A stretch of DNA of 64,000 bases from Candidatus Oxydemutatoraceae bacterium. GTDB taxonomy: Bacteria; Pseudomonadota; Gammaproteobacteria; Poriferisulfidales; Oxydemutatoraceae. Within the stretch, counting starts at the first letter, position 1; every line of letters starts with the position of its first letter. The stretch covers positions 704,001-768,000 of the forward strand of contig CBDCOZ010000003.1 in NCBI GenBank assembly GCA_965220085.1, written 5' to 3'. The notes under the pieces are model-generated. The model searched no databases, was not told the origin of the DNA, and saw nothing but the letters and a program-made list of their open reading frames with translations. Positions 15,774 to 62,390 of the stretch are shown piece by piece. Both the position numbers and the translations under genes were made by a program.

Positions 15774-17921
15774 ATGATGACAGAAGGACAGACCAGAACC
15801 GCTATCTTCTTTGTTCTGTGTTTTGTATTGCCGGGATGCGACGACCGACCGTGGAACAATCCTTATGCGGAGACAGAAGCGGCCAATATTCTGTATTCCA
15901 GTTTTTCCGAACGCCCCAAGTATCTGGATCCGGTGCGCGCATACAGCAGCAACGAATACGGGTTTCTGGGACAAATATACGAACCGGTTCTGCAGTACCA
16001 TTACCTGAAGCGGCCCTATGCGTTAGCGCCGCTGACCGCGCGGCGGATGCCGACCCTGCGTTACTTTGACGACAATCATCGGGCGGTCGAGCGCGACAAA
16101 GCCGCTTATGTCACTTATGACATAGAGATAAAACCCGATATCATGTTTCAGCCCCATCCGGCCTTTGTCCGCGACGAGCGGGGAGGATATCTGTATCACG
16201 ATACGGGCAAAGGACACAAAAGGACGTTTCGCCGCTTGTCCGACTTCCCGTTGACGGACAGCCGGACGCTGCGCAGCGAGGATTATTTGTATCAGATAAA
16301 GCGGCTTGCCGACCCCGGTTTGCACTCGCCGATTGCGGGTATTCTGCTCAAGCATATCGTCGGTTTTGCGGACTTGCGCGAGCGCATTGCGCAGGCGCGG
16401 GAGCGGCACTCGGGCGGCTGGCTCGATTTGCGTCAGTTTGATTTTGACGGCGTTGAAATCCTTGGCGATTACCGCTACCGCATCACCGTACATGCCGGTT
16501 ATCCGCAGTTTATATATTGGCTTTCGATGCCTTTTTTCTCGCCGATGCCGTGGGAAGCCGATGCGTTTTACAGCCAGCCCGAGTTTGACCGGCACAATAT
16601 CACCCTGAACTGGTATCCGGTGGGCACCGGGGCATATATGTTGAGCGAGAACAATCCCAATCTGCGGATGGTACTGACGCGCAATCCTAATTTCCGCGAT
16701 GACAACTACCCCGTTGCCGGCGAAGACGGCGACCGCGATGCCGGTTTGTTACGAGATGCGGGCGCGCGTTTGCCGTTTATAGATAAGGCCATCTTCAGTT
16801 TGGAGAAAGAGAATATCCCATACTGGAATAAGTTTCTGCAAGGGTACTATGACAGGTCGGGGATCAGTTCCGACAGTTTTGATCAGGCCGTGCAGTTGGA
16901 AGAAGGCGGCGAGTTTGAACTGACGGAGGATATGCAAGACAAGGACATACGCCTTTCCATCGCGCACCAACCGACAACCGTCTACATCGGTTTTAATATG
17001 CTGGATTCGGTAGTGGGCGGTTATAGCGCGCGCGCGATCAAATTGCGCCAGGCTCTGTCTATCGCGGTTGATATTGAGGAATACATCTCAATATTTTTGA
17101 ACGGTCGCGGCTCGGCTGCGCAGAGCCCTCTGCCGCCGGGCATCTTCGGACATGTGGGCGGCGCCGAAGGCGCGAATCCGATCGTCTATGACTGGATCGG
17201 CGGGCAAGCGCAACGGAAGCCGCTTGCCGAGGCCAAACGCCTGCTCGCCGAGGCCGGCTATGCCGACGGCATCGACCAACAAAATGGCAAACCGTTGACG
17301 CTTTATTTTGACGCGGTCGGCACCGGCCCCGATGCCAAAGCGTGGTTAAACTGGATTACAAAACAGTTTGAGAAAATCGGCGTACAGTTGGTCGTGCGAA
17401 GCACCGACTACAACCGTTTTCAGGAAAAGATCGCGGAAGGCACCGGACAAATTTTCCGTTGGGGCTGGAATGCCGATTACCCCGACCCGGAAAACTTTCT
17501 GTTTTTATTCTATGGCCCCAATGCAAAAGCCAAGAAACAAGGCGAGAATGCGGCAAACTATGACAATCCGCGCTTCAACGAACTGTTTCGTCAGATGCAA
17601 GGCATGCCAAATGGTCCCGCGCGGCAGAAAGTGATAGATGAGATGCTGGATATATTGCGTTATGAATCGCCTTGGATGTGGGGGTATCACCCGAGGTCTT
17701 TTGTCTTGCATCACGATTGGCTGGGGAATGTCAAACCCAATCTGATGGCGCACAATACGCTTAAATATCTTCGCATCGACACGCCGAGCCGCGATCGCAA
17801 ACGCGAAGAATGGAATCAGCCGGAGCTGACCCCGGTATTCGGATTGCTGGTTTTGTTGCTCATCTTTGTGCTGCCGGTTATCAATATATATTACAAGCGA
17901 CGCCGTCAAACAATCCTATGA
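15774..17921 (+). CDS. ABC transporter substrate-binding protein (peptide/nickel family), lipoprotein-like
   Basis: LPGC lipobox-like, LDPV, PVGTGAY, WNADYPDPENFL. Confidence 0.85.
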   Translation: MMTEGQTRTAIFFVLCFVLPGCDDRPWNNPYAETEAANILYSSFSERPKYLDPVRAYSSNEYGFLGQIYEPVLQYHYLKRPYALAPLTARRMPTLRYFDDNHRAVERDKAAYVTYDIEIKPDIMFQPHPAFVRDERGGYLYHDTGKGHKRTFRRLSDFPLTDSRTLRSEDYLYQIKRLADPGLHSPIAGILLKHIVGFADLRERIAQARERHSGGWLDLRQFDFDGVEILGDYRYRITVHAGYPQFIYWLSMPFFSPMPWEADAFYSQPEFDRHNITLNWYPVGTGAYMLSENNPNLRMVLTRNPNFRDDNYPVAGEDGDRDAGLLRDAGARLPFIDKAIFSLEKENIPYWNKFLQGYYDRSGISSDSFDQAVQLEEGGEFELTEDMQDKDIRLSIAHQPTTVYIGFNMLDSVVGGYSARAIKLRQALSIAVDIEEYISIFLNGRGSAAQSPLPPGIFGHVGGAEGANPIVYDWIGGQAQRKPLAEAKRLLAEAGYADGIDQQNGKPLTLYFDAVGTGPDAKAWLNWITKQFEKIGVQLVVRSTDYNRFQEKIAEGTGQIFRWGWNADYPDPENFLFLFYGPNAKAKKQGENAANYDNPRFNELFRQMQGMPNGPARQKVIDEMLDILRYESPWMWGYHPRSFVLHHDWLGNVKPNLMAHNTLKYLRIDTPSRDRKREEWNQPELTPVFGLLVLLLIFVLPVINIYYKRRRQTIL

Positions 17922-51087: not shown

Positions 51088-52824
51088 CTAAGTGGATGAT
51101 TCCCATTGATTGTGTCCTAGAAATCGATTGAGTCGTTCCGCCACCAATTTACGGCGCACTTTCAAAAAATCCTCATAGGCATCCATCTCCCATAGCGATT
51201 TATCATTGGGAATACATTGTTTGTCTAATTTGTTTGCACCTCCTTTTTTTATGACATCGGGTAAATAGATGGCTGGCTCTTTATCGCTGATTCTCTTGTT
51301 TGTTCTTTCACCAATAAAAGCCATATTGCAAATATCATTGATTCTCTGCGGAGGCATGCCAACCTTTTCCAATAATGCCTTTGGGAATATGTGATGGAAT
51401 TGAAGTTTGTGTGTTGTGCCTGAGTGTTTCAGTGAGATACTCAGTTGATCTTCCCAATCTCGAGCATTGTCCGCTTGAAAAGCTAAAAACATCGTTTTGA
51501 AGTAGGCGCTTCTGGTACTTCTATTTTCCAAGTCTTCAGGCAGGATATCTAAACGTCCGACCTGAGTTTCTAGAGATTGTAATAACTTGCCAATATTTTT
51601 ATTGCGGTGGATAGTGGTTAAATCCTGATCCAAGAGACTTTCCGACGACCCTTTGGAATATCGAGCTTTCGCGTTTGCTACCAAGATCCAATAGCGGAGT
51701 TGTTTCTCCTCATTGTCCGACAACTCATACCCCTTAGAGTCTGCATACTTGGCCAGCGTAATAAGGATATATGGTGATGACAACAGACTCTGATTTTCTA
51801 CATTTACGTTGCTACTCAAGAAATTAAGAGCATACTCCATACCCTTTTTTGCATTTTCCCACCCTTTCTCAAGATCTTCTTTGGATAAACGGCCCAATAT
51901 TTTGAAACGAGACTGATTGGTTACAAAAGCGACAAGGTTCTTAATGTGGATTGACAAATCAATATCAAACCCATGTTTTGTAGCACATTCCTCTTTGAAA
52001 TTTTGAAATAACTGAAGAGAATTTCGCCATTTTGCGGTAATTTGGGCTAGTGCTAAATCGGATCCTCGAAGCTTTGCCCCGAGTGAATTTACCCGAACAA
52101 ATATTTCTGTTACTTCTTCATACGTCTTATCACGGTCTAGAATATGTACCCGGTAGCTATAATTTTTGATATCCCTAAGCCGTGTTAGGCGGGTTGTGTA
52201 TTTGTCGTACCTTGGGTCCTCCATCTCTGTAACACCTGCCTTTTTGAGGAATGGCTTATCGCTACTTTCTGTGAACACCTCAGTAACAGGAACCCAATGG
52301 GGTAATTGAGCGAGTTTTTTGGAATGGACAACAAAAGTCATACTCTCAAAGCGCTTCATGAGTTCATCTTCGGATGCATCTATTGTGTTCTCATTCAAAT
52401 CAATGTCTGTGTTGTCTTCAGCTTCTTCATCCTCAATGACCTCGGTTACTAACCCAACTTCTTCCGGATGTTCCAAATTGAAAAGAATGTCAATTGGTCG
52501 CTTAAGGCCTTTCACATAGACTGGCTCGCCTAGCAAAATAGCTGACAGCGAAGTTAATCGTTGTTGACCGTCTAACAAAAGCTGGTGACCGCGCTGTTTT
52601 TGTTGTGATAAATCTTGGTTAATATCAAATTTTCGTGTCGCAACTTCTCCGTCTGTTTCCCATGTGAGAATTGTCCCTGAGGGATATTTCCTATAAAGTG
52701 AGTCCAGCAAATCCCGCACACGAGTTTTTTGCCAAACGTATTGGCGTTGCATCTCCGGCAGTTTGATATCGCCGCGTTTGATTTTTGCCACAAGTTCATG
52801 TATTGGTATATCTTGCTCTGCCAT
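51088..52824 (-). CDS. GmrSD-like modification-dependent restriction protein (DUF262 + HNH)
   Basis: P.MQR.YVW, LDGQQRLT, F.RVN..G; C-terminal HHIFPK...N....N. Confidence 0.85.
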   Translation of the reverse strand: MAEQDIPIHELVAKIKRGDIKLPEMQRQYVWQKTRVRDLLDSLYRKYPSGTILTWETDGEVATRKFDINQDLSQQKQRGHQLLLDGQQRLTSLSAILLGEPVYVKGLKRPIDILFNLEHPEEVGLVTEVIEDEEAEDNTDIDLNENTIDASEDELMKRFESMTFVVHSKKLAQLPHWVPVTEVFTESSDKPFLKKAGVTEMEDPRYDKYTTRLTRLRDIKNYSYRVHILDRDKTYEEVTEIFVRVNSLGAKLRGSDLALAQITAKWRNSLQLFQNFKEECATKHGFDIDLSIHIKNLVAFVTNQSRFKILGRLSKEDLEKGWENAKKGMEYALNFLSSNVNVENQSLLSSPYILITLAKYADSKGYELSDNEEKQLRYWILVANAKARYSKGSSESLLDQDLTTIHRNKNIGKLLQSLETQVGRLDILPEDLENRSTRSAYFKTMFLAFQADNARDWEDQLSISLKHSGTTHKLQFHHIFPKALLEKVGMPPQRINDICNMAFIGERTNKRISDKEPAIYLPDVIKKGGANKLDKQCIPNDKSLWEMDAYEDFLKVRRKLVAERLNRFLGHNQWESST

Positions 52825-53124
52825 AATCTCTTCACTCTGATACAGTGCACAGTGTTCTTTACTGCGGCTTTGTTATTTTACGCATTTATGATACCTCAAC
52901 GGTCAAATATTTCTACTAATATGCGCTATCTGTTTGCTACTTATTCCCAAGGATTATAATTCTGAAGGGTGATATATAGCTAGTAAAACCGTGATATTTT
53001 GTCACCCTACTATGAGTATGTCGTAGGAAGTAAGGGGCTATCGGTGTTGTTGATGGTGTATGCGAAGAAATCTCGCAGGGCAAACGCTAATTATTTGTTT
53101 GCTGTGTGTTTTAGTTTCTTGACT

Positions 53125-53213
53125 TGGCGGAGAGGGAGGGATTCGAACCCCCGGTGGGCGCAAACCCACAACGGTTTTCAAGACCGCCGCTTTCAACTAC
53201 TCAGTGCCTCTTC
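53125..53213 (-). tRNA. tRNA-Ser(TGA) degenerate copy (3' ~70 nt intact, 5' end decayed)
   Basis: Identical to 58634.. through the anticodon arm, then diverges (ttcaactactcagtgcctcttc). Confidence 0.75.
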
Positions 53214-53214
53214 G

Positions 53215-53547
53215 TGAATAGTGCCAGAAACATTCCGGATTTCTGGCATCAACAAGAAATGTAGCCGACATGCAGTATCAACACATCGGCTACGACAGTT
53301 TGCTATCGCCGCCTATCGTAGTGCTACCGCCGCCTTCTTTGTGAGACCGGTGATGAAAGTCTTTCCCGGCAAGATAGACCAAGCGCTCACCGACAACGGC
53401 TCCGAGTTCTGCGGCATGTCTGATTGCTGCCTGCAACTATCTGCTATGGTTTCACACCCGGCGACCATGCTACGGACTGCAACTTCAAGCGCCCATGACA
53501 CAGCACAGCATTTGCCTCATGTGCCCAACGCACCTTGGCGCCACACA
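53215..53547 (+). mobile_element. Internally deleted IS481 derivative
   Basis: Patchwork of the neighbouring IS left end, TDNGSEFCG segment and right end. Confidence 0.75.
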
Positions 53548-53551
53548 ATAA

Positions 53552-54632
53552 TGCATAATGCCAGAAACATTCTGGATTCTTGGCTTCAACAACAAACGTA
53601 GCCGACATGCAATATCAACACATCGGCCACGGCATCAAAGGTTTCTATAAAATAGCTGCTTTTTCAATAGACGAGGCAACTATGAGCTATAAAGCAAAAC
53701 AGAAACTTGAAGCCCTTATATTATGGGAGAACCACAACATAAAAGCCAGCATGGACGCTTACCACATCAGCAAATCATCGCTCTATGAGTGGCGGAGACA
53801 ATATCGGCTTTATGGCATTAACGGCTTAATCAATCAGAGCACTTGCCCGCGCCAGCCACGCCGGCGCGACTGGCCTGAGGAGATTATCGACGAGATTCGG
53901 CGACACCGCGAAAACTATCCCTACGGCGCACCCAAGATATACCTGCTGATTCAACCGTGGTGTGACGAGCGCGGCTTGCGTTGTCCCAAGCCGCGCACCA
54001 TCGCGCGACTGATTGCCGGCGAAGCCGATAAGATGCGCTGGGTGCCCGCAAAACCGCGTCGGCAACGCACAACGCAAAGCAAGCGCAAGCACCGTCTTAA
54101 AAAGGGTTCCAAGGCCACGTATCCCGGGTATTGCATCGCTATGGATACCGTGCAACGATTTATTCAAGGTCATCGCCGTTATCTGTTCACGGCCGTAGAT
54201 TTGTATAGCCGGTTTGGTTTTGCTATCGGCGTCCCACGTGGCAACAGCATCGCTGCCGAGTTCTTTATGAAGTTGGTGATGCAAGTGTTTCCCGCCAAGA
54301 TAGAGCAAGTGCTCACCGACAACGGCTCCGAATTCTGCGGCGCGTTTGATCGCTGCTTGCAAGAGCAGGGCATCCGGCACTGCTACACGTATCCCAAATG
54401 TCCGAAGATGAACGCATTCAACGAACGCTTTAACCGCACACTCCAGGAAGAGTTTGTGGAGTTTGAAGAGGGTTTGTTGCTGACCGATATTCAGGCATTC
54501 AATGATCGTATGATAGACTATCTGTCATGGTTTAATACCCAACGACCACACTATGGATTGAGGCTCCAAACACCTATGAAACAAATTGCACAACATTTGC
54601 CCAAAGTTTCCAATATGTACTGGCATCATACA
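53552..54632 (+). mobile_element. IS481-family insertion sequence with AATAA target duplication
   Basis: Imperfect IRs tgcataatgccagaaacatt / rc tgtatgatgccagtacatat; AATAA at 53547-53551 and 54633-54637. Confidence 0.85.
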
Positions 54633-54641
54633 AATAATTGA
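53607..54641 (+). CDS. IS481-family DDE transposase
   Basis: HTH N-terminus; MDT, TDNGSEF, ERFNRTLQEEF, N..RPH. Confidence 0.9.
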   Translation: MQYQHIGHGIKGFYKIAAFSIDEATMSYKAKQKLEALILWENHNIKASMDAYHISKSSLYEWRRQYRLYGINGLINQSTCPRQPRRRDWPEEIIDEIRRHRENYPYGAPKIYLLIQPWCDERGLRCPKPRTIARLIAGEADKMRWVPAKPRRQRTTQSKRKHRLKKGSKATYPGYCIAMDTVQRFIQGHRRYLFTAVDLYSRFGFAIGVPRGNSIAAEFFMKLVMQVFPAKIEQVLTDNGSEFCGAFDRCLQEQGIRHCYTYPKCPKMNAFNERFNRTLQEEFVEFEEGLLLTDIQAFNDRMIDYLSWFNTQRPHYGLRLQTPMKQIAQHLPKVSNMYWHHTNN

Positions 54642-54688
54642 CGGTTCGAAAAAGTTTCTATACACTTATAGTATGCGAATCAATTCCG
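54638..54688 (+). promoter_or_regulatory. Promoter TTGACG-N17-TACACT with two CGAA-N5-TTCG-like boxes
   Basis: cgaaaaagtttct (54647-54659) and cgaatcaattccg (54676-54688). Confidence 0.55.
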
Positions 54689-54697
54689 AGATCCACT

Positions 54698-56404
54698 ATG
54701 ATCACTAAACGCCAAAAACAAGTTCTTGACTGCATAGCGCAGTATGGTCAAAAGCACGGCTACAGCCCCTCGCTCGAAGAAGTGGGAGACAAACTCGGCC
54801 TCTCCTCTCTCTCTACTGTGCGCTACCACTTGGAGAAGTTGAAAAAGGCGGGCTATCTGGAAAAAGAGACAAGCAAGCCCCGCTCAATCAACATTGCCAA
54901 ACAAGAAATGGTTCAGGTTCCCATACTCGGAGCGATTGCTGCCGGACGTCCCATTGAAGCGATTACAGATCGCGAGGACACAATAGCCGTATCACGAAGC
55001 AGTATTCCAAGAGGCACGGAAGTTTACGCCCTCAAAGTCAGGGGCGATAGCATGATTGACGAAGATATTTCTGATGGCGATGTTGTGATAGTGCAGCATC
55101 AGCCAACTGCGGATGATGGCGATAGGGTCGTCGCCCTCATTGACAATAGCGAAGCAACATTAAAGAAACTGTACCGCGAGAAAGACAGAATCCGATTGCA
55201 ACCCGCCAATCCCAAACTTCTGCCGATTTATATTGACCCGGAATATTTGCAAATACAAGGGCGTGTTTTAACGGTTGTAAAGACTTCGGAACGAATAAAA
55301 GCGGGCCCTATTTTCAGTACGCCTGTTGCCAAAACCAAAGAGACTCATCAGAGCGCTCTTTTTTTGGCGCCCAAGAACGCCAAATTTCCCTCGACACGTT
55401 TTCAAGGAAGCAAAACAAAGCTGGCGGATAACATTTGGGAATGCATAAAAGATTTAAATTTTCAAGCGCCTTTGGATTTGTTTGGCGGCACAGGAGCGGT
55501 CGGATATATGCTCAAAACCAAAGGCAAGCAAGTTTATTACAACGACTATTTGGCTTTTAACTATCTGACCGGACTCGCTTTGATTGAAAACTCAAAAGAA
55601 ACTCTGAACGACAAAGATTTGGATTTCATACTTTCCAAGCATAGCAACATTGAATACCCAAACTTCATTGAGAAAACTTTTCACGACATTTACTTTACTG
55701 ACGACGAGAACAAATGGCTTGATATTGTATCAACGAATATTCGGCAGGTGAGAGACAAATACAAGCAAGCGCTGGCTTACTTTGCGCTTTTTCAGGCGTG
55801 CATTATCAAGCGCCCGTATAACCTCTTCCATCGCAAAAATTTATATGTCCGTTTTGCGGATGTCGAGAGAAGTTTTGGAAACAAAACGACTTGGGATAAG
55901 CCGTTTGAGAAGCATTTTTTGAAGTTTGTCGGCGAAGCAAACAACGCTGTATTTGATAACGGACAAAAGAACAGCGCGCTAAACAAAAGCGCTTTTAATC
56001 TCGATGCAAAAGCGGACTTGATTTACATTGACACGCCCTATATTTCTAAAAAAGGAATAGGGGTGGATTACATAGGTTTTTATCACTTTCTTGAAGGGCT
56101 GAGTGATTATCAAAATTGGTACAAGCATATTAATTTCGATAGCAAACATAGAAAATTCAAAAACAAAAAGTCTGTCTGGTCTGACAAAAATAAAATTACC
56201 GACGCTTTTGACAGACTTTTTGCAAAATACAAAGAGTCTGTTCTTGTTGTTTCCTATCGCTCGGATGGCATTCCGTCACCGGAAACGTTGCAAAGTCTCA
56301 TGAAGCAATACAAAAGGAATGTGTACGAAGCATTTCGCAGCGAGTACAAGTATGCTTTAAGCAAAAATGGCGACTCAAAAGAAATACTGCTGATTGGCAG
56401 ATAA
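54698..56404 (+). CDS. LexA repressor fused to N6-adenine DNA methyltransferase (D12/FokI-like)
   Basis: LexA wHTH, IAAG.P cleavage site, GDSM, EATLKK; then RFQGSK, DLFGGTG, IYIDTPY. Confidence 0.88.
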   Translation: MITKRQKQVLDCIAQYGQKHGYSPSLEEVGDKLGLSSLSTVRYHLEKLKKAGYLEKETSKPRSINIAKQEMVQVPILGAIAAGRPIEAITDREDTIAVSRSSIPRGTEVYALKVRGDSMIDEDISDGDVVIVQHQPTADDGDRVVALIDNSEATLKKLYREKDRIRLQPANPKLLPIYIDPEYLQIQGRVLTVVKTSERIKAGPIFSTPVAKTKETHQSALFLAPKNAKFPSTRFQGSKTKLADNIWECIKDLNFQAPLDLFGGTGAVGYMLKTKGKQVYYNDYLAFNYLTGLALIENSKETLNDKDLDFILSKHSNIEYPNFIEKTFHDIYFTDDENKWLDIVSTNIRQVRDKYKQALAYFALFQACIIKRPYNLFHRKNLYVRFADVERSFGNKTTWDKPFEKHFLKFVGEANNAVFDNGQKNSALNKSAFNLDAKADLIYIDTPYISKKGIGVDYIGFYHFLEGLSDYQNWYKHINFDSKHRKFKNKKSVWSDKNKITDAFDRLFAKYKESVLVVSYRSDGIPSPETLQSLMKQYKRNVYEAFRSEYKYALSKNGDSKEILLIGR

Positions 56405-56406
56405 GT

Positions 56407-57153
56407 TTACTTTTGCTTTTCTTTCCACTCAAGGTACTCCTTGATGTTTCTGTAGGGTTGCTCTTTGCCTTGGTCGCGCGCGACTTTTTTCTGCACAAAA
56501 TTGCGCCAGTAGTCCTCAAAGACCGCTTCGCCGTATTTTGCAAATGGCCCGGCGCCTTTTTCCAGCCGTTTAATTTCCGTAACAGAGCCGATATTTGCGG
56601 TATTGCCGTTGCCGAGATATTCGGAAGAGATTTTGTATTTCGGCTGGACAATGATTTCTATGTCTTTTATCGCAGATTCTATTTCATCCATTTTATCGAT
56701 AGGGGCAATGCTGACTTCCACATCACCGACGCGAGAATAAATAAATCCCAAAATCCAATGTTCCTTGTACTCGTCATATGGGAACATGATATTTTTTGTC
56801 GGATTGCGCAGGTAGCCGGCATAGGAACCGAGAGTAAATCCGGTTACTCGCTTGTCATTTTTGCGATAGGCGCTTTTCACATCCAAAGCAATCTTGGATT
56901 TGTCGGGCATTATGAAAGTAAAATCAGGGTAAACCGTTTGCCTGTCGGATTCAAGCGCTTCAAGATTGTGAGACGCTGCCATATCCAAAATGATAGGCGC
57001 AGTCACCAACTCAAAAACTTTGGAGATGAACTTGGCGTCATTATTGATCGTATAGATACGCTTCTGCGAATCAATAATGCCTTTAATGTCCCAGCCCAAC
57101 CCAATCTTATTTACTTCTTCTTCAAGAATTGTTTTGATGTCACATTTTTTCAT
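56407..57153 (-). CDS. Type II restriction endonuclease, EcoRV family
   Basis: YPDFT...IALDVK, FTLGSY, NPTKNI.FPY..Y..HWILG, GNGNTANIGS. Confidence 0.88.
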   Translation of the reverse strand: MKKCDIKTILEEEVNKIGLGWDIKGIIDSQKRIYTINNDAKFISKVFELVTAPIILDMAASHNLEALESDRQTVYPDFTFIMPDKSKIALDVKSAYRKNDKRVTGFTLGSYAGYLRNPTKNIMFPYDEYKEHWILGFIYSRVGDVEVSIAPIDKMDEIESAIKDIEIIVQPKYKISSEYLGNGNTANIGSVTEIKRLEKGAGPFAKYGEAVFEDYWRNFVQKKVARDQGKEQPYRNIKEYLEWKEKQK

Positions 57154-57157
57154 GATT

Positions 57158-57364
57158 TTACGAAAGCAACTCGGACGGCTTTACGCCTAACGCTTTGGCT
57201 ATTTTCCCAATATTCTCAACGGAAACATTGCGCTCACCGCGTTCAATATCGCTCATATATGTGCGGTGCAAACCCGATCTGGAAGCCAGTTCCTCCTGCG
57301 AGTACCCCCCGCGCTGGCGCAGTTCTTTAACTTTCCGCCCTAATTTTTTCTTTATATCCGTCAT
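57158..57364 (-). CDS. R-M controller (C) protein, XRE HTH
   Basis: SQEELA..SGLHRTY.S.IERGERN; directly upstream of REase; ACTTATAGTCTGTAG C-box-like sequence upstream. Confidence 0.88.
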   Translation of the reverse strand: MTDIKKKLGRKVKELRQRGGYSQEELASRSGLHRTYMSDIERGERNVSVENIGKIAKALGVKPSELLS

Positions 57365-57765
57365 ACAAAGTCTGGTAACTTATTGGCTACATACTATACC
57401 TTCGCGTAAAAATGTATCTACAGACTATAAGTAACATAGCGCTTTACGCAAATCACAAGGTAGCGGAGCCCCCTGAGACATGTCAGGCATTGCGTTCAAA
57501 ATGGGTTCGCATAAAGAATCTTGAGCGTCGCAAAGCGAGACTCAAAAATTTGCCATAAGAATCAAAGACGGCGAGGCGCGAAGGAGCCCCTATTTCAATG
57601 GCGCAATACCCAAAGAAAAGAGGGTTATGCCCCCTCATTCGTTCGCGATACCTGTCCGGTGTTGCTTTATGCTCGTCCTCATCTGTATGCGACATCTAAT
57701 TCTCTATATTTTCTATCACCTGCCTGAGCCTCTGCCTCTGCTGTGGGAAATGTCGATTCAGATAA

Positions 57766-58062
57766 TCAATTATCTCTTGTAAAAAGCTTTTTTATAGCGT
57801 CGTTTAGTTGGGCTTTGGTTAATTGGGATTTGGCTTTATCAGAAAAACCGCACGCATACGTAAGATTATCTCTACACTTTTTTGAGATTAGCAGTTCACT
57901 CACAGACTTTACTTTTTTGAGCTCTCTATAAAAATCCTTTGCTTCTTTTACAAACGGATCCGCCCTTTTGGTTTTTTGCATAGCCTGCTCAAGAAATCCG
58001 TCACAAATAGCCTGAGGTTTGGTTTGCAGGTCTGTTGCTGATTTTATAAATTTAGGAGTCAT
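57766..58062 (-). pseudogene. Truncated AvaI/BsoBI-family restriction endonuclease (N-terminal 98 aa)
   Basis: IKSATDLQT...GFL.QA..K.KRADPFV..A...GFSDKAKSQLT resembles the BsoBI N-terminus as I recall it; stops early. Confidence 0.65.
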
Positions 58063-58067
58063 GCTTG

Positions 58068-58277
58068 CTAATCAAAGAAGTCACCTATGCTAATTTTTAG
58101 CGCCTTGGCAATTTTTCCAATATTCTCAAGAGTTATATTTTTTTCTGCTCGCTCAATCATTCCGACATATGTGCGATGAACGCCGGCGAGCGAAGCAAGT
58201 TGTTCCTGCGAAAGCTCTTGTTTTGTCCTTTCTTCTCGGACCCTATTGCCAAACTTTATGAGGATTTCTTTTTTCAT
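58068..58277 (-). CDS. R-M controller (C) protein, XRE HTH
   Basis: LSQEQLA..AGVHRTYVGMIERAEKNITL; upstream AATCATAGTATGTAGAACTAAAGT resembles a PvuII-type C-box. Confidence 0.88.
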   Translation of the reverse strand: MKKEILIKFGNRVREERTKQELSQEQLASLAGVHRTYVGMIERAEKNITLENIGKIAKALKISIGDFFD

Positions 58278-58633
58278 AATTGATAACTATAGTTACATGC
58301 TAACTTTAGTTCTACATACTATGATTAGCATATGCTTTTGTTAACAATAGCAACGGATTAAGCCGAAAATTTTCTTCTCCTTCCTTCCGCCTTGCGGCAG
58401 GGGCGCACAAAAATGAGATGAAAGTTTTTAGATTTGCGCCGCGACCGGAGCGAGGGCGGCTAAGGCGCGGCGGGGTTATCGTTGTTCTCGCCCCGCAGGG
58501 CGCGAGATACTGCGCAGGCTTTGCTTGCCTCCGTTTTTAACCGCTTAAAAAACTTGTGGCTTTTGCCCGCACAATGTTTGAGCTTCGTCCCTCAACACCG
58601 CCAACCCTCGTTCGCTTGGAGCAAAGCGCAGAT

Positions 58634-58723
58634 TGGCGGAGAGGGAGGGATTCGAACCCCCGGTGGGCGCAAACCCACAACGGTTTTCAAGACCGCCGCT
58701 TTCGACCACTCAGCCACCTCTCC
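58634..58723 (-). tRNA. tRNA-Ser(TGA)
   Basis: GGAGAGG acceptor, gcggt-CTTGAAA-accgt, long variable arm, CCA. Confidence 0.95.
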
Positions 58724-58771
58724 GCAAGGCAAGGTATTCTAGCACTCAGGAGGTTGCGGTATGCAAGGTGC

Positions 58772-58801
58772 TGTATGATGCCATGACATATTGGACACTA
58801 A
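58772..58801 (+). mobile_element. Isolated IS481 terminal repeat
   Basis: tgtatgatgccatgacatattggacact resembles rc of the IS right end tgtatgatgccagtacatattggaaact. Confidence 0.6.
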
Positions 58802-58916
58802 CTTTATATTGACTGCCTTTGCAATTCTCTTGGGAGCTCACTCCTTTTTCATTTGTGGTTATGTGGCGATTCGCTTTGGCATTCTCTTGAAATAAAATAA
58901 TACGGATGGAAACTGT

Positions 58917-58969
58917 TTGCATGTTCGATATATTTTCGATTATGATTAGCATATCGAAAATATATCGAA
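58917..58969 (+). promoter_or_regulatory. Promoter TTGCAT-N18-TATGAT with perfect 17-bp inverted repeat (two CGAA-N5-TTCG-like boxes)
   Basis: ttcgatatattttcgat (58924-58940) / atcgaaaatatatcgaa (58953-58969). Confidence 0.65.
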
Positions 58970-58987
58970 ACTGAGCCAATCAATACT

Positions 58988-60853
58988 ATGCTTACAAAAC
59001 GCCAAAAAGAGGTTCTGGATTTTGTTAAATCTTACAAGAAAAAGAACCGATACGCTCCTTCATTAAATGATGTAAAGGAGCATCTAAAGCTCTCTTCCGT
59101 TTCTACTGCGCATTATCATGTAAAAAGATTGCAAGAGGGAGGGTATTTGCAAAAAGAATATAACCAAGCGAGATCGATTTCCGCAGTAAAGTCAAAACAG
59201 TCCGTAGAGATTCCCATTTCAGGGACCATTGCGGCAGGACGGCCAATTGAAGCAATAGAAGTTCCTGGCGAAACAATCACTGTTACGAAAAATGAAGTTG
59301 GGAGATTTGGAAAGCATTATGCTTTGCGCGCCTCGGGAAGCAGCATGATTGATGAGGGCATTTTTGACGGAGATATTGTTGTTATTCGTCAAGAACAAAC
59401 TGCAGACGATGGGCAAACTGTCGTGGCTATAATAAATGACAATGAAGCAACGCTTAAAAAACTATACAGGGAAAAAGATCGTTTTCGCCTCCAGCCAGCC
59501 AATCCAAGATTGTTTCCAATTTATACAGACGAAGCAGAGGTGCGGGGCGTTGTAGTAAAAATTATCCGAAACCTTGAATCCCAAACTGAAAAGGAGAAGG
59601 TATCAGACAATAAATTAAGTCGCCGAATTGATTATTCGTGGGACTTTAAAGGTGTCAAAACAAAATCTCATACGCATATATTTCACACTTACCCTGCAAT
59701 GTTTATCCCCCAAGTTGCGCGTCGACTTTTGTTAACCTACACCAAAAAAGGAGATACGGTTTGTGATATTTTTTGTGGTTCGGGAACCGCGCTTGTTGAG
59801 AGCCGGTTGGCCGGGCGCAATTCATATGGAATAGACCTTAACCCGCTTGCAGTATTTTTAGCAACAGTTAAAACAACCGTTATCGATCCCAATAAATTAT
59901 CGTCTGAATACATAAAGTTGCTTGCTCGAATAAGGAAAACAAAGATAGGCGAAAACGAAGCGCCTCAATTTAATAATATAGAGTTTTGGTTTAAAGAAAA
60001 TGTAATTATAGAATTGGCTAAAATTAAAAAAGCCATAAGCGAAACAAAAGATGCGAATGTGAAAAACTTTTTTATGGTTGCTTTTAGCGAAATAGTCAGA
60101 AAGTCTTCAAACTCAAAAAACGGAGAGTTTAAATTAGTCAGAATAAAAGGTGAAAAATTGAGAAAATTTAATCCGGATGTTCTGGGGTTATTTAGCCAAA
60201 AAGCTGAGGCAAATATCATGGGCATGTCTGGCTTCTATGATGATGTTGATAAGAAATCATGGACGAAGACTATTTTAGGGGATTCGTCAAAGGGCAACGG
60301 CATCAAAGGGGATTCTATTGATTGTATTATCACATCTCCGCCATACGGAGACAGTCGCACAACTGTTGCTTATGGCCAATTCTCACGCCTCTCCGCACAA
60401 TGGGTTAATCTGTTTGAAGAGCCTAACAATGCTTCGGGAGTAGATAATGATTTGCTTGGGGGAAAGACAACGAAGAGGTTGGAGCATAAACTCTCATCAA
60501 AATATTTGCTGGAGGCTTTGGATAGGATTTCCAGAAAAGATGAGAAGAGGGCGAGAGAGGTTTTGAGTTTTAATTTGGGATTAAACGACTGCTTAAAACA
60601 AGCCTATGAAATGTTAAAGCCGAAGGGATATTTTTGTATTGTAATAGGGAATAGACAAGTTAAACAAGTCAGAATCCCTACGGACTTTATCATTGCTGAG
60701 ATGGCTCAAGAAGCCGGTTTCACTTGTGAGGATATTTCTGTCAGAAATATACCAGGCAAACGAATGCCAATTAAGAATTCTCCAACAAATATTGCCGGAG
60801 ATTTAGAAGAAACAATGACCAAAGAAAGTATTGTTATTTTGAGGAAAAACTAA
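58988..60853 (+). CDS. LexA repressor fused to N4-cytosine DNA methyltransferase (M.MvaI-like)
   Basis: LexA wHTH, IAAG.P, GSSM, EATLKK; then H.YPAMFIPQ, DIFCGSGT, ITSPPYGDSRTTVAYGQFS. Confidence 0.88.
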   Translation: MLTKRQKEVLDFVKSYKKKNRYAPSLNDVKEHLKLSSVSTAHYHVKRLQEGGYLQKEYNQARSISAVKSKQSVEIPISGTIAAGRPIEAIEVPGETITVTKNEVGRFGKHYALRASGSSMIDEGIFDGDIVVIRQEQTADDGQTVVAIINDNEATLKKLYREKDRFRLQPANPRLFPIYTDEAEVRGVVVKIIRNLESQTEKEKVSDNKLSRRIDYSWDFKGVKTKSHTHIFHTYPAMFIPQVARRLLLTYTKKGDTVCDIFCGSGTALVESRLAGRNSYGIDLNPLAVFLATVKTTVIDPNKLSSEYIKLLARIRKTKIGENEAPQFNNIEFWFKENVIIELAKIKKAISETKDANVKNFFMVAFSEIVRKSSNSKNGEFKLVRIKGEKLRKFNPDVLGLFSQKAEANIMGMSGFYDDVDKKSWTKTILGDSSKGNGIKGDSIDCIITSPPYGDSRTTVAYGQFSRLSAQWVNLFEEPNNASGVDNDLLGGKTTKRLEHKLSSKYLLEALDRISRKDEKRAREVLSFNLGLNDCLKQAYEMLKPKGYFCIVIGNRQVKQVRIPTDFIIAEMAQEAGFTCEDISVRNIPGKRMPIKNSPTNIAGDLEETMTKESIVILRKN

Positions 60854-61551
60854 ACAATCTTCACTCTCTTGTCAAAACAATTATAAAGTTGTCTGGTTTT
60901 CACTCTGAAGCCGGTGCCGTGGTTGCGCACAGATCCGTTCGGACGGTAATACATCCTAAAATCAACAACAATGGCATCCTTTTTCACCATGTTTTTGAAG
61001 CGCGCAAAACCAAAACCCTCTAAGAAGTATGCTTCGTTGAAATGAAAATGTTCGGTTCCTTTTATTTCCTTTGAATCAGCCAGAGCATAGACAAGCGCCG
61101 GAAGTTTGGTCTCAAATTTTCTCTTCAAGTCTTCCATATTCCAGCAGATATTTAGTCTTTCCCCCCTGCCAACAACGCGAACTTTATCCCTTTCAACTTT
61201 AAGCTTTAGCCCTTGATTATTATATCGTTTGCAAGAAAGAGAGCTGTGCAGTTCTTTGGATCGTCCATTTTCTCTTTTTGAATATCCAAAATTATTAAGC
61301 AGTATTCGGTTGCGATTGCCGCCTTTGGGTTGTGGTTCAAGAGTAAACAGAGTTAGCATTGACGTTGCATTTTTTCGGCACGTCTTGAGTTCGGCAATCT
61401 CACCAATGTCGGGAAGCGGAATATTATTTTCTTTTATTTTAAGCAAATCTTCGAGAGTTTTGCCAATTCCCGTATCCCCCTTGCGGTGCGTTTTAACAAA
61501 GCCAAGAGATTCTATTCTATTCAGTTTCTTTTTGAGCTGGTTTAGTGTCAT
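60850..61551 (-). CDS. Type II restriction endonuclease, MvaI/BcnI family
   Basis: GDTGIGKTLEDLL.I.ENN...PD...ELK..R, LTLFT.EP, RNHGTGFR. Confidence 0.88.
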   Translation of the reverse strand: MTLNQLKKKLNRIESLGFVKTHRKGDTGIGKTLEDLLKIKENNIPLPDIGEIAELKTCRKNATSMLTLFTLEPQPKGGNRNRILLNNFGYSKRENGRSKELHSSLSCKRYNNQGLKLKVERDKVRVVGRGERLNICWNMEDLKRKFETKLPALVYALADSKEIKGTEHFHFNEAYFLEGFGFARFKNMVKKDAIVVDFRMYYRPNGSVRNHGTGFRVKTRQLYNCFDKRVKIV

Positions 61552-61552
61552 G

Positions 61553-61774
61553 TTACTTCACAAAATAATCCAAGGGCTTTTTATATAACCTGGCAAACTC
61601 TTTTAGTTGCAGCACATCAAAACGCCTCTGCCCTGATTCAATTTTGGAAATATAGGACTGTGTTCGGCCAATAGCTTTCGCTGCCTGCGCCTGATCCAAG
61701 CCCGCTTCAAAGCGCGCCTTTTTCAGACGCTTCACAATCTTTTGGTGCTCTTCCTTGTATATTGCTCGTGGCAT
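61553..61774 (-). CDS. XRE-family HTH regulator (controller-like)
   Basis: LDQ..AA..IGRTQSYISKIESGQRR; TATTCC-N5-GGAATA palindrome upstream (61791-61807). Confidence 0.85.
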   Translation of the reverse strand: MPRAIYKEEHQKIVKRLKKARFEAGLDQAQAAKAIGRTQSYISKIESGQRRFDVLQLKEFARLYKKPLDYFVK

Positions 61775-61893
61775 ATGCCTCAAGATTTAATATTCCATTT
61801 AGGAATATTCCAAAATGTCATATAGTATCTATGTGATGAGATGGTGTGCCACTTTGCGACACTGTTCGGCGGTTTCGGGCAGAAAGCGCAGAT

Positions 61894-61983
61894 TGGCGGA
61901 GAGGGAGGGATTCGAACCCCCGGTGGGCGCAAACCCACAACGGTTTTCAAGACCGCCGCTTTCGACCACTCAGCCACCTCTCC
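61894..61983 (-). tRNA. tRNA-Ser(TGA)
   Basis: Identical to 58634..58723. Confidence 0.95.
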
Positions 61984-62312
61984 GCAGGGCGGGTATTCTA
62001 GCACTCAGGAGGTTGCGGTACGCAAGGCGCACAACAGCCGCCTCTCCGCAGGGCGGGTATTCTAGCGCTCAGGAGGCCGCGATGTGCGGGGCGCACTATT
62101 CTAGCACTCAGGAGGTTGCGGTATGCAAGGCGCACAACAGCCGCCTCTCCGCAGGGCGGGTATTCTAGCGCTCAGGAGGCCGCGATGTGCGGGGGCGCAC
62201 TATTCTAGCGCTCAGGAGGCCGCGATGTGCGGGGGCGCACTATTCTAGCGCTCAGGAGGCCGCGGTATGCAAGGCGCACAACAGCCGCCTCTCCGCAAGG
62301 CAGGTATCCTGG
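61971..62312. repeat. Compound tandem repeats of tRNA-Ser 5' end/promoter region
   Basis: cagccgcctctccgca.ggc.ggtattctagc and tattctagc(a/g)ctcaggagg units repeated. Confidence 0.85.
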
Positions 62313-62390
62313 CGCTTGCCAACCATGCCCAGCTCTTGCCAACTATGATATGATTTACAAATATGCCTGAATAATCATAGGAGGATTACC

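Follow-up and report, generated by a model that had tools for sequence, protein, structure and literature searches.

LexA-headed methyltransferases with private operators in two restriction-modification islets: candidates for damage-responsive control of Type II systems

We analyzed a 64,000-nucleotide (nt) stretch of DNA from a Candidatus Oxydemutatoraceae bacterium (assembly GCA_965220085.1, contig CBDCOZ010000003.1, positions 704,001 to 768,000 of the forward strand), hereafter the window, in which two DNA methyltransferase genes of different restriction-modification systems each begin with a complete LexA repressor. Both fusion genes lie at 54.6 to 62.0 kb in foreign low-GC DNA (guanine-plus-cytosine fraction of 0.38 to 0.47, inside a genome of 0.52 to 0.60), in two islets delimited by three copies of a 108-nt unit that contains tRNA-Ser(tga) (direct-repeat family D1). 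In islet 1, fusion 1 (54698-56404, plus strand; 568 amino acids [aa]) is convergent with the gene of an EcoRV-family restriction endonuclease (56407-57153, minus strand; 248 aa), recognized by Pfam Endonuc-EcoRV (E = 2.2e-68) and by phmmer against EcoRV structures (E = 2.3e-46, residues 20 to 244). The gene of a controller (C) protein, HTH_3 by Pfam (57158-57364, minus strand; 68 aa), precedes that of the endonuclease, with repeats of a presumed C-box at 57375-57435. Islet 2 is built alike. Fusion 2 (58988-60853, plus strand; 621 aa) is convergent with an MvaI/BcnI-family endonuclease gene (60850-61551, minus strand; 233 aa; Pfam MvaI_BcnI, E = 6.9e-51), the two stops overlapping by 4 nt, and an HTH_3 C gene, again assigned by Pfam (61553-61783, minus strand; 76 aa), precedes the endonuclease gene; repeat analysis places the presumed C-box of this system, AATATTCC-N5-GGAATATT, at 61789-61809. 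The endonuclease of islet 2 is closer to R.MvaI (E = 5.8e-22) than to R.BcnI (E = 3.7e-12). Target sites of GATATC for system 1 and CCWGG for system 2 are guesses by homology.

Both fusions were delimited by open reading frame, Pfam and LexA alignment, fusion 1 also by its AlphaFold2 layout; the frame of fusion 1 is listed from a TTG at 54638, and the ATG at 54698 agrees with the N-termini of relatives. LexA_DNA_bind is matched at 57.8 bits in fusion 1 (E = 9.7e-16) and 51.6 bits in fusion 2 (E = 8.4e-14) against a cut-off of 23.7, and Peptidase_S24 at 108.2 bits (E = 2.5e-31) and 94.5 bits (E = 4.4e-27), respectively. Alignment to solved LexA structures spans residues 2 to 196 of both proteins, with E = 1.3e-37 and 6.2e-28 for T. 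maritima 3K2Z and about 1e-21 for the E. coli LexA entries. In this alignment IAAGRP corresponds to the E. coli cleavage site VAAGEP, GDSM or GSSM to GMSM, and ATLKK to VTVKR. The LexA module of fusion 1 (aa 1-196) thus carries Ala82-Gly83 (54941-54946), Ser118 (55049-55051) and Lys156 (55163-55165), and that of fusion 2 (aa 1-195) carries Ala83-Gly84 (59234-59239), Ser119 (59342-59344) and Lys157 (59456-59458).

Behind these heads lie enzymes of different kinds. Fusion 1 continues into a D12-class N6-adenine methyltransferase (aa ~235-568; Pfam MethyltransfD12, E = 1.1e-16), whose FGGTG and DTPY motifs are invariant across 46 relatives, fused and unfused. Fusion 2 continues into an enzyme of the N6_N4_Mtase type (E = 7.2e-24), with FCGSG and SPPY motifs read in the translation, the latter presumably indicating N4-cytosine specificity. 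Both methyltransferase matches exceed the Pfam cut-off. Across 199 residues the heads share 52% identity; the methyltransferase parts share no similarity. An AlphaFold2 model of fusion 1, with a mean predicted local distance difference test score (pLDDT) of 77.9, has a bead-on-string arrangement: a winged helix (1-65), the linker that holds the cleavage site and is poorly ordered (66-93), the S24 beta domain (94-195), a disordered linker at about 200-232 and a confidently predicted methyltransferase fold (235-568). The model yields domain limits and no inter-domain contacts. A preliminary description of this locus, drawn up from the letters alone, had proposed a complete LexA with winged helix, Ala-Gly site, Ser and Lys at the head of both frames, continuation in frame into two unrelated methyltransferases, and convergence of each fusion on C-protein and endonuclease genes; all of these features are borne out.

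A sequencing error or frameshift that falsely joins lexA to a methyltransferase gene could mimic such an architecture, and a stop or frameshift between the two had been named at the outset as a finding that would undo the description. The independent Logan assembly of run X1, which may be the source sample of this genome, has none: it shows 0 differences and 0 indels over 54604-58652 and 58739-61900. The same architecture and length recur in all 120 best fusion-2 matches and in 38 other fusion-1 clusters, and the frame is open at 80 genome loci and free of internal stops at 79. An assembly or frameshift artifact, or a decayed gene, is therefore refuted as nearly as such a possibility can be, because the Logan assembly is identical and the architecture recurs massively elsewhere.

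The fusion genes share a conserved element in their promoters. It is a direct repeat, NTTC(T/G)(A/G/T)-N5-NTTC(T/G)(A/G/T), or TTC-N8-TTC with an 11-bp period, which occupies the spacer between -35-like and -10-like hexamers, often with an inverted second copy after the -10. We searched 80 upstream regions, those of both window genes and of 78 loci whose upstream DNA was long enough. The strict pattern for this candidate operator is present in 51 of them, whereas 200 shuffles gave 0.6 on average and never more than 3, and a relaxed pattern finds it in 68 of the 78 loci. In a single metagenome scan it accompanied 10 of 10 fusions with other enzymes versus 0 of 19 stand-alone LexA genes.

For fusion 1, the consensus promoter scan identifies TTGACG-17-TACACT at 54638-54666 (plus strand), in the layout seen at two relatives (L009 and L025), and the 17-nt spacer at 54644-54660 (plus strand) matches the operator pattern as GTTCGAAAAAGTTTCTA. 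An insertion sequence ends at 54632, 5 bp before the -35 at 54638, and the core promoter is intact because the element stops there. The promoter region of fusion 2 (58917-58970, plus strand) was located by its inverted repeat and by the operator matrix. Register with relatives gives a presumed -35 of TTGCAT (58917-58922, plus strand) and a presumed -10 of TATGAT (58941-58946, plus strand); the operator matrix places operator 1, GTTCGATATATTTTCGA, at 58923-58939 (plus strand) and operator 2, inverted, at 58954-58970. The promoter holds a perfect 17-nt inverted repeat (58924-58940 and 58953-58969) with the 11-bp-period direct repeat in each arm, and its two operators are the two best operator-matrix matches in the genome, at 25.1 and 21.2 bits.

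A second element was seen in many fusion promoters. A perfect DnaA-box-like nonamer, TT(A/T)TCCACA, usually read TGTGGATAA, occurs in 36 of the 80 fusion upstream regions (shuffle mean 0.18), just upstream of or within the promoters, and in neither window fusion promoter. By eye it is also present in 7 of 20 stand-alone Patescibacterial lexA promoters (L151, L152, L155, L158, L164, L166 and L169). The nonamer may couple fusion genes to replication initiation or may be a general Patescibacterial promoter feature.

Evidence bearing on recognition of the candidate operator comes from 69 loci in which operator and helix are both readable. At the helix position aligned to E. coli Glu45, which we take to be a base contact, Glu or Gln accompanies a CGG half-site in 12 of 12 loci versus 0 of 57 others, and Ser one helix turn earlier accompanies a CGA half-site in 14 of 16 loci versus 0 of 41. 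In a tree that leaves out the head and uses the S24 and enzyme parts alone, the operator type changes seven times, and the helix residue changes along with it in 6 of 6 independent pairs (sign test, p = 0.031). This covariation supports recognition of the operator by the head; it is not decisive, because operator and head are physically adjacent and their co-transfer could yield the same pattern.

The fusions are widespread. Of the 120 best database clusters for fusion 1, 39, counting that of the window itself, are proteins of 566 to 573 aa with all three domains and 55 to 85% identity, and unfused relatives of about 355 aa are 82 to 84% identical to the enzyme part. The 120 best clusters for fusion 2 are without exception fusions, with lengths of 611 to 640 aa and at least 70% identity. 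With one genome taken per species, at least 565 species carry a relative of fusion 2 (encoded by 565 of 597 candidate stretches), and the relatives among the matches listed are mostly from Patescibacteria, with some from Omnitrophota, Bdellovibrionota and others. Gene context was counted in the best 80 fusion-2 loci (L008-L087). At least 750 nt follow the gene in 73 of the 80; an endonuclease was seen in 67 and is convergent within 120 nt in 65, a C gene is recognizable at 36, and all three LexA motifs stand in an open frame at 72. None of the 829 matching records of a plasmid collection, and none of the 49 of a phage collection, spans at least 80% of fusion 2. Absence from these collections may explain why the family escaped study. 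The metagenome scan, made with fusion 1, returned no full-length fusion-1 relative, yielding only unfused methyltransferases, other fusions and stand-alone LexA genes.

Partner genes vary within both families. The fusion-2 methyltransferases of these 80 loci, 66 to 80% identical to fusion 2, pair with two endonuclease subfamilies, 24 loci having an enzyme at least 60% identical to that of the window and 41 one below 60%, mostly at 33 to 42%. This hints at partner exchange or at divergent specificity (perhaps CCWGG versus CCSGG). Unfused relatives of the fusion-1 methyltransferase (L088-L101) have two gene layouts. In one, the endonuclease gene is upstream and co-directional and there is no C gene (L088-L093, L100 and L104); in the other, it is convergent and a C gene is present (L094, L095 and L097). 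In this methyltransferase family the LexA head was seen solely on the independently transcribed, convergent layout.

To what enzymes the head is joined was read from a search of 1.84 billion representative proteins with a profile of the two window heads. Among the best 150 matches, all 42 proteins of at least 393 aa combine LexA_DNA_bind and Peptidase_S24 with a DNA methyltransferase (matches of 259 to 378 aa, probably cut at contig ends, were left out). The partner families, which can overlap, are N6_N4_Mtase in 30 of the 42, Eco57I in 7, MethyltransfD12 in 5, N6_Mtase in 5 and C-5 DNA_methylase in 2; the head is common to at least four methyltransferase classes. Ala83, Gly84, Ser119 and Lys157 (fusion-2 numbering) are invariant in all 42, in modules that are only about 35 to 50% identical. 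A head tree of 141 modules (of 152, the 11 that span fewer than 170 profile positions were removed) places 43 of 44 fused heads in one 68-row subtree, with a Shimodaira-Hasegawa-like approximate likelihood ratio test (SH-aLRT) value of 90. The subtree also contains 13 stand-alone and 12 intermediate-length rows, and the remaining 73 rows contain one fused head. We read the tree as clustering and not as proof of a single origin, given a sampling bias in favor of the query. Heads with about 50% identity to those of the window stand, in the metagenome scan, in frames of 471 to 576 aa, and heads at or below 42% identity in frames of ~220 aa. The preliminary description had envisaged a modular LexA-methyltransferase chassis with specificity modules swapped behind it. 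Pfam, run on the database matches, finds LexA_DNA_bind, Peptidase_S24 and a methyltransferase together in many proteins, and the modular chassis is well supported by the 42 fusions, their several enzyme classes and their common subtree.

A sample of the phylum Patescibacteria gave a LexA_DNA_bind match in 315 of 401 genomes, a tally that includes the unpublished genome G157; among the 150 matches listed, most are in frames of 203 to 298 aa and 4 are above 400 aa. One contig (G002:C93; L144 and L147) holds two LexA-methyltransferase fusions 4.4 kb apart, in frames of 443 and 636 aa, and genome G001 holds two on separate contigs, of 528 and 628 aa. In three genomes examined, these two included, every LexA_DNA_bind match above 50 bits lies in a long frame.

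The host of the window fusions has no LexA of its own. Its 2.49-Mb genome encodes RecA, and its sole LexA_DNA_bind matches are the two fusions. Among relatives, none of 18 genomes of its family has a LexA_DNA_bind protein, and elsewhere in the order 1 of 12 has one. None of these 30 relatives carries a LexA-methyltransferase fusion; the fusions are therefore recent cargo of this genome. The operator also differs from those of ordinary lexA genes. It is present at 0 of 20 stand-alone Patescibacterial lexA promoters (shuffle mean 0.29; genome G157 excluded), which carry GTATAC-type repeats instead. As the cassette brings its own repressor and operator, only RecA would be required from the host, and in this LexA-less host the fusions would be the sole LexA-type substrates of RecA. 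Besides the fusions and a fragment of 54 codons at C3:1436359, the lineage has a single S24 protein: a peptidase-only protein of 133 aa with no DNA-binding head (G000:C3:392029-392262; L003, 1435-1836, minus strand), which adjoins a 2-oxoglutarate-oxygenase-like gene.

We propose that each fusion gene is a self-contained, portable autorepressor unit of a C-protein-controlled Type II system, in which RecA-activated cleavage would derepress the methyltransferase; we put the probability of this reading at roughly 0.6. The LexA head would dimerize through its S24 domain, and the winged helix would bind the private TTC-N8-TTC operator between -35 and -10, repressing synthesis of the protein itself. 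DNA breaks or gaps, including those made by the partner endonuclease at unmethylated sites, would load RecA on single-stranded DNA and so cause the head to cleave itself at Ala-Gly. Release of the DNA-binding head would open the promoter, and methyltransferase synthesis would rise; cleavage would leave the S24 domain flexibly linked to the methyltransferase. On balance, damage would be followed by enhanced modification, the Type II equivalent of restriction alleviation in Type I systems. Two lines of published work fit such a role: excerpts of PMC3874152 describe induction of the SOS response by Type II systems in post-segregational killing or imbalance, and excerpts of PMC3874165 describe alleviation of Type I restriction after DNA damage, with unmodified sites arising during repair and recombination.

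The steps of this proposal do not stand equally firm. Judged from sequence, a conserved operator within the fusion promoters implies autorepression, which we consider highly probable; damage-induced cleavage with derepression is favored less strongly, and a net protective rise in methylation is put forward tentatively. We strongly infer that the head would bind the predicted operator, and we infer dimerization, RecA-stimulated cleavage, activity of the cleaved enzyme and a physiological benefit. In a broader form, the promoter, operator and LexA head would together make up a mobile plug-in damage sensor, carried by at least four methyltransferase classes and needing host RecA alone, in which damage-induced enhancement of modification limits self-restriction. 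A private operator code that diversifies with the recognition helix would let several such systems share one cell (two, perhaps three, in the window). This extended proposal is possible, and we hold it with more reserve than any of its parts just named.

Other roles for the head have to be set against this proposal. The head might be an autoregulator only, its DNA binding and dimerization setting methyltransferase level and timing on entry to a new cell, much as the N-terminal regions of M.SsoII or M.EcoRII do, and its self-cleavage having no physiological part. The operator-in-promoter layout would suffice for such a role, the window systems already have C proteins for timing, and methyltransferase-borne autorepression is established elsewhere, going by the reference list of PMC3874152. 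What makes this account unlikely is the retention of the cleavage apparatus, both in the 42 divergent fusions with their invariant Ala-Gly, Ser and Lys and in 72 of 80 members of the fusion-2 family, since invariant catalytic residues are hard to explain without selection on cleavage. Still less likely, in our judgment, is a damage-triggered kill switch, that is, an abortive-infection or addiction device, fired by DNA damage from phage or other causes, in which cleavage exposes degradation signals, the methyltransferase is lost and the longer-lived endonuclease attacks the chromosome. In E. coli, LexA fragments are rapidly degraded after cleavage, and the new Ile-Ala-Ala C-terminus that cleavage would leave resembles, we presume, known ClpX tags. 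Restriction-modification systems are moreover described as toxin-antitoxin-like addiction modules in excerpts of PMC3874152. Loss of the repressor head must, however, also derepress new synthesis; the disordered linker of the model would separate the methyltransferase from the S24 domain; and for a family present in the genomes of at least 565 species, killing the host whenever DNA is damaged would come at a high cost.

The fusions might instead act as surrogate SOS regulators, replacing LexA for host genes in a LexA-less lineage, a role suggested by their being the only LexA_DNA_bind proteins of the genome and by the lack of LexA in all 18 family relatives. The operator matrix, run against the whole 2.49-Mb genome, speaks against it. 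It finds 10 sites of at least 16 bits, the top two being the fusion-2 operators, and the site at window position 17496 falls inside a transporter gene. With the best sites of this whole-genome scan only at fusion promoters, a multi-gene SOS regulon of the fusions is not supported, and a host regulon under their control was rejected. Their absence from all 30 relatives, which marks them as recent cargo, likewise argues against such a role, and we consider it very improbable.

Several observations weigh against the autorepressor reading that we prefer. Under the pattern used, 10 of the 78 relatives have no recognizable operator, and the AAGxP expression is unmatched in 6 of the 80 fusion-2 loci. 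In the window, the insertion sequence lies 5 bp from the -35 of fusion 1, the downstream operator copy of this gene is degenerate, and the promoter hexamers of fusion 2 did not pass the consensus promoter scan, which found 11 promoter-like sites in the region, no excess over the 14.9 in shuffles. The operator-helix covariation, given the adjacency noted above, could reflect co-transfer and not recognition. Both fragments of E. coli LexA are degraded after cleavage, and if the S24-methyltransferase fragment were degraded as well, the net effect would be the opposite of the safety valve that we propose. Extra methyltransferase during damage would also weaken phage defense.

Among the closest known systems are M.SsoII, M.Ecl18kI, M.EcoRII and M.ScrFIA (excerpts of PMC3874152), in which, as proposed for the fusions, the methyltransferase's own DNA-binding head acts at its own promoter to control restriction-modification genes. 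In contrast to the SsoII type, the head of the fusions is an entire LexA, self-cleavage site and Ser/Lys protease-dimerization domain included, so that a signal could destroy it; it is common to at least four methyltransferase classes, and the fusion systems also keep a C protein. Common descent with the SsoII and EcoRII heads is unlikely, because the fusion head is LexA by Pfam. With canonical LexA (E. coli 1JHH and 3JSO; T. maritima 3K2Z) the heads share full-length homology, the Ala-Gly site, the Ser/Lys dyad and the winged helix, and they probably autoregulate in the same way. Unlike canonical LexA, they are joined to an enzyme and have no regulon, their private operator being found essentially only at their own promoter, and this operator differs from the repeats at the 20 stand-alone Patescibacterial lexA promoters.

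The alphaproteobacterial LexA box is GTTC-N7-GTTC, which the fusion operator, (G/T)TTC-N7-(G/T)TTC with its 11-bp period, resembles. Direct-repeat LexA boxes are also reported in Balneolaeota in excerpts of PMC7739468, which in turn cites work on Verrucomicrobia, Patescibacteria and Acidobacterium. Such boxes define chromosomal SOS regulons, whereas the fusion operator accompanies a mobile gene. PvuII and Esp1396I are C-protein-controlled Type II systems, and as in these, the window C genes lie directly upstream of the endonuclease genes with repeat elements in front; the fusion methyltransferase gene differs in gaining a second, independent control layer with a proposed damage input. Type I alleviation works via proteolysis of the restriction subunit. 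Restriction is suppressed there, whereas the route proposed for the fusions is more modification through a cleavable repressor, with the same proposed purpose as described in excerpts of PMC3874165: protection of the chromosome when repair and recombination create unmodified sites.

Our literature searches, whose scope left aside supplements and one Patescibacteria SOS study, found no published description of a LexA-methyltransferase fusion. Excerpts of a Thermus phage paper have LexA-like genes only as separate genes, and those of the 2013 review PMC3874152 bring up LexA solely in connection with toxin-antitoxin systems. Joining a signal-destructible repressor to an antitoxin-like enzyme, across enzyme classes and with its own operator code, appears to be novel. 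How Type II systems spare their host when methylation lags, as in a new cell, during repair and recombination or under stress, is only partly understood. C proteins, methyltransferase heads and antisense RNA are the known controls; if our reading is true, a cleavable LexA head adds one in which DNA breakage feeds back directly on the supply of methyltransferase. The family is a large one, the count of at least 565 species genomes being for one methyltransferase type alone and mostly from uncultured ultra-small bacteria, and its annotation simply as "LexA" distorts inferences on SOS regulation in those phyla. The window offers two intact examples with clear predicted operators in a 2.5-Mb, RecA-positive bacterium without a LexA of its own, and head and private operators could serve as an orthogonal damage-responsive switch.

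Between the two islet systems lie the remains of a third. The region 57440-58345 (minus-strand genes) contains an orphan C protein gene (58068-58277), identified by Pfam and open reading frame and with an inverted repeat of its own in front (58297-58331), together with a truncated BsoBI-family endonuclease gene of which the N-terminal third is left (57766-58062; 98 aa, profile positions 3 to 93 of 313). Just past the truncation point sits an operator-like site, ATTCTCTATATTTTCTA (57699-57715, plus strand), which at 19.0 bits is the fourth-best operator-matrix match in the 2.49-Mb genome. It is speculative, yet conceivable, that ATTCTCTATATTTTCTA is what remains of the promoter of a third LexA-methyltransferase gene, since deleted, and equally speculative that a single deletion, removing this gene and most of the BsoBI-family endonuclease, would account for the remnant. 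The BsoBI family was found in 0 of the 401 sampled genomes, a count that carries no weight, as the control likewise matched nowhere.

The tRNA-Ser(tga) units are all on the minus strand. A degenerate copy with flanks marks the left edge of islet 1 (53114-53221; 79% identity to the 108-nt reference copy of D1), a middle copy found by ARAGORN divides the islets (58634-58723; intact D1 unit 58623-58730), and the right-hand copy, also found by ARAGORN (61894-61983; intact D1 unit 61883-61990, 99%), is presumably the original gene. The insertion sequence next to fusion 1 is a full copy of 1081 bp (53552-54632, plus strand; blastn against the genome, query 353-1433; repeat D5) with an rve transposase (Pfam rve, rve_3 and HTH_28), and an older truncated copy at 53215-53551 abuts it. 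By blastn, this rve-type element recurs on each of the three contigs in numerous copies, some full and others decayed, and the genome is rich in insertion sequences. Left of the degenerate tRNA-Ser copy, a low-GC block (0.40) holds the gene of a GmrSD-family (Type IV, modification-dependent) endonuclease (51088-52824, minus strand; 578 aa); with this gene beside the restriction islets, the tRNA-Ser site is a small defense island. At the other edge, tandem repeats of 40 nt and about 100 nt (61994-62338) adjoin the right-hand tRNA-Ser, and one of their units recurs beside the middle copy, at 58735-58774.

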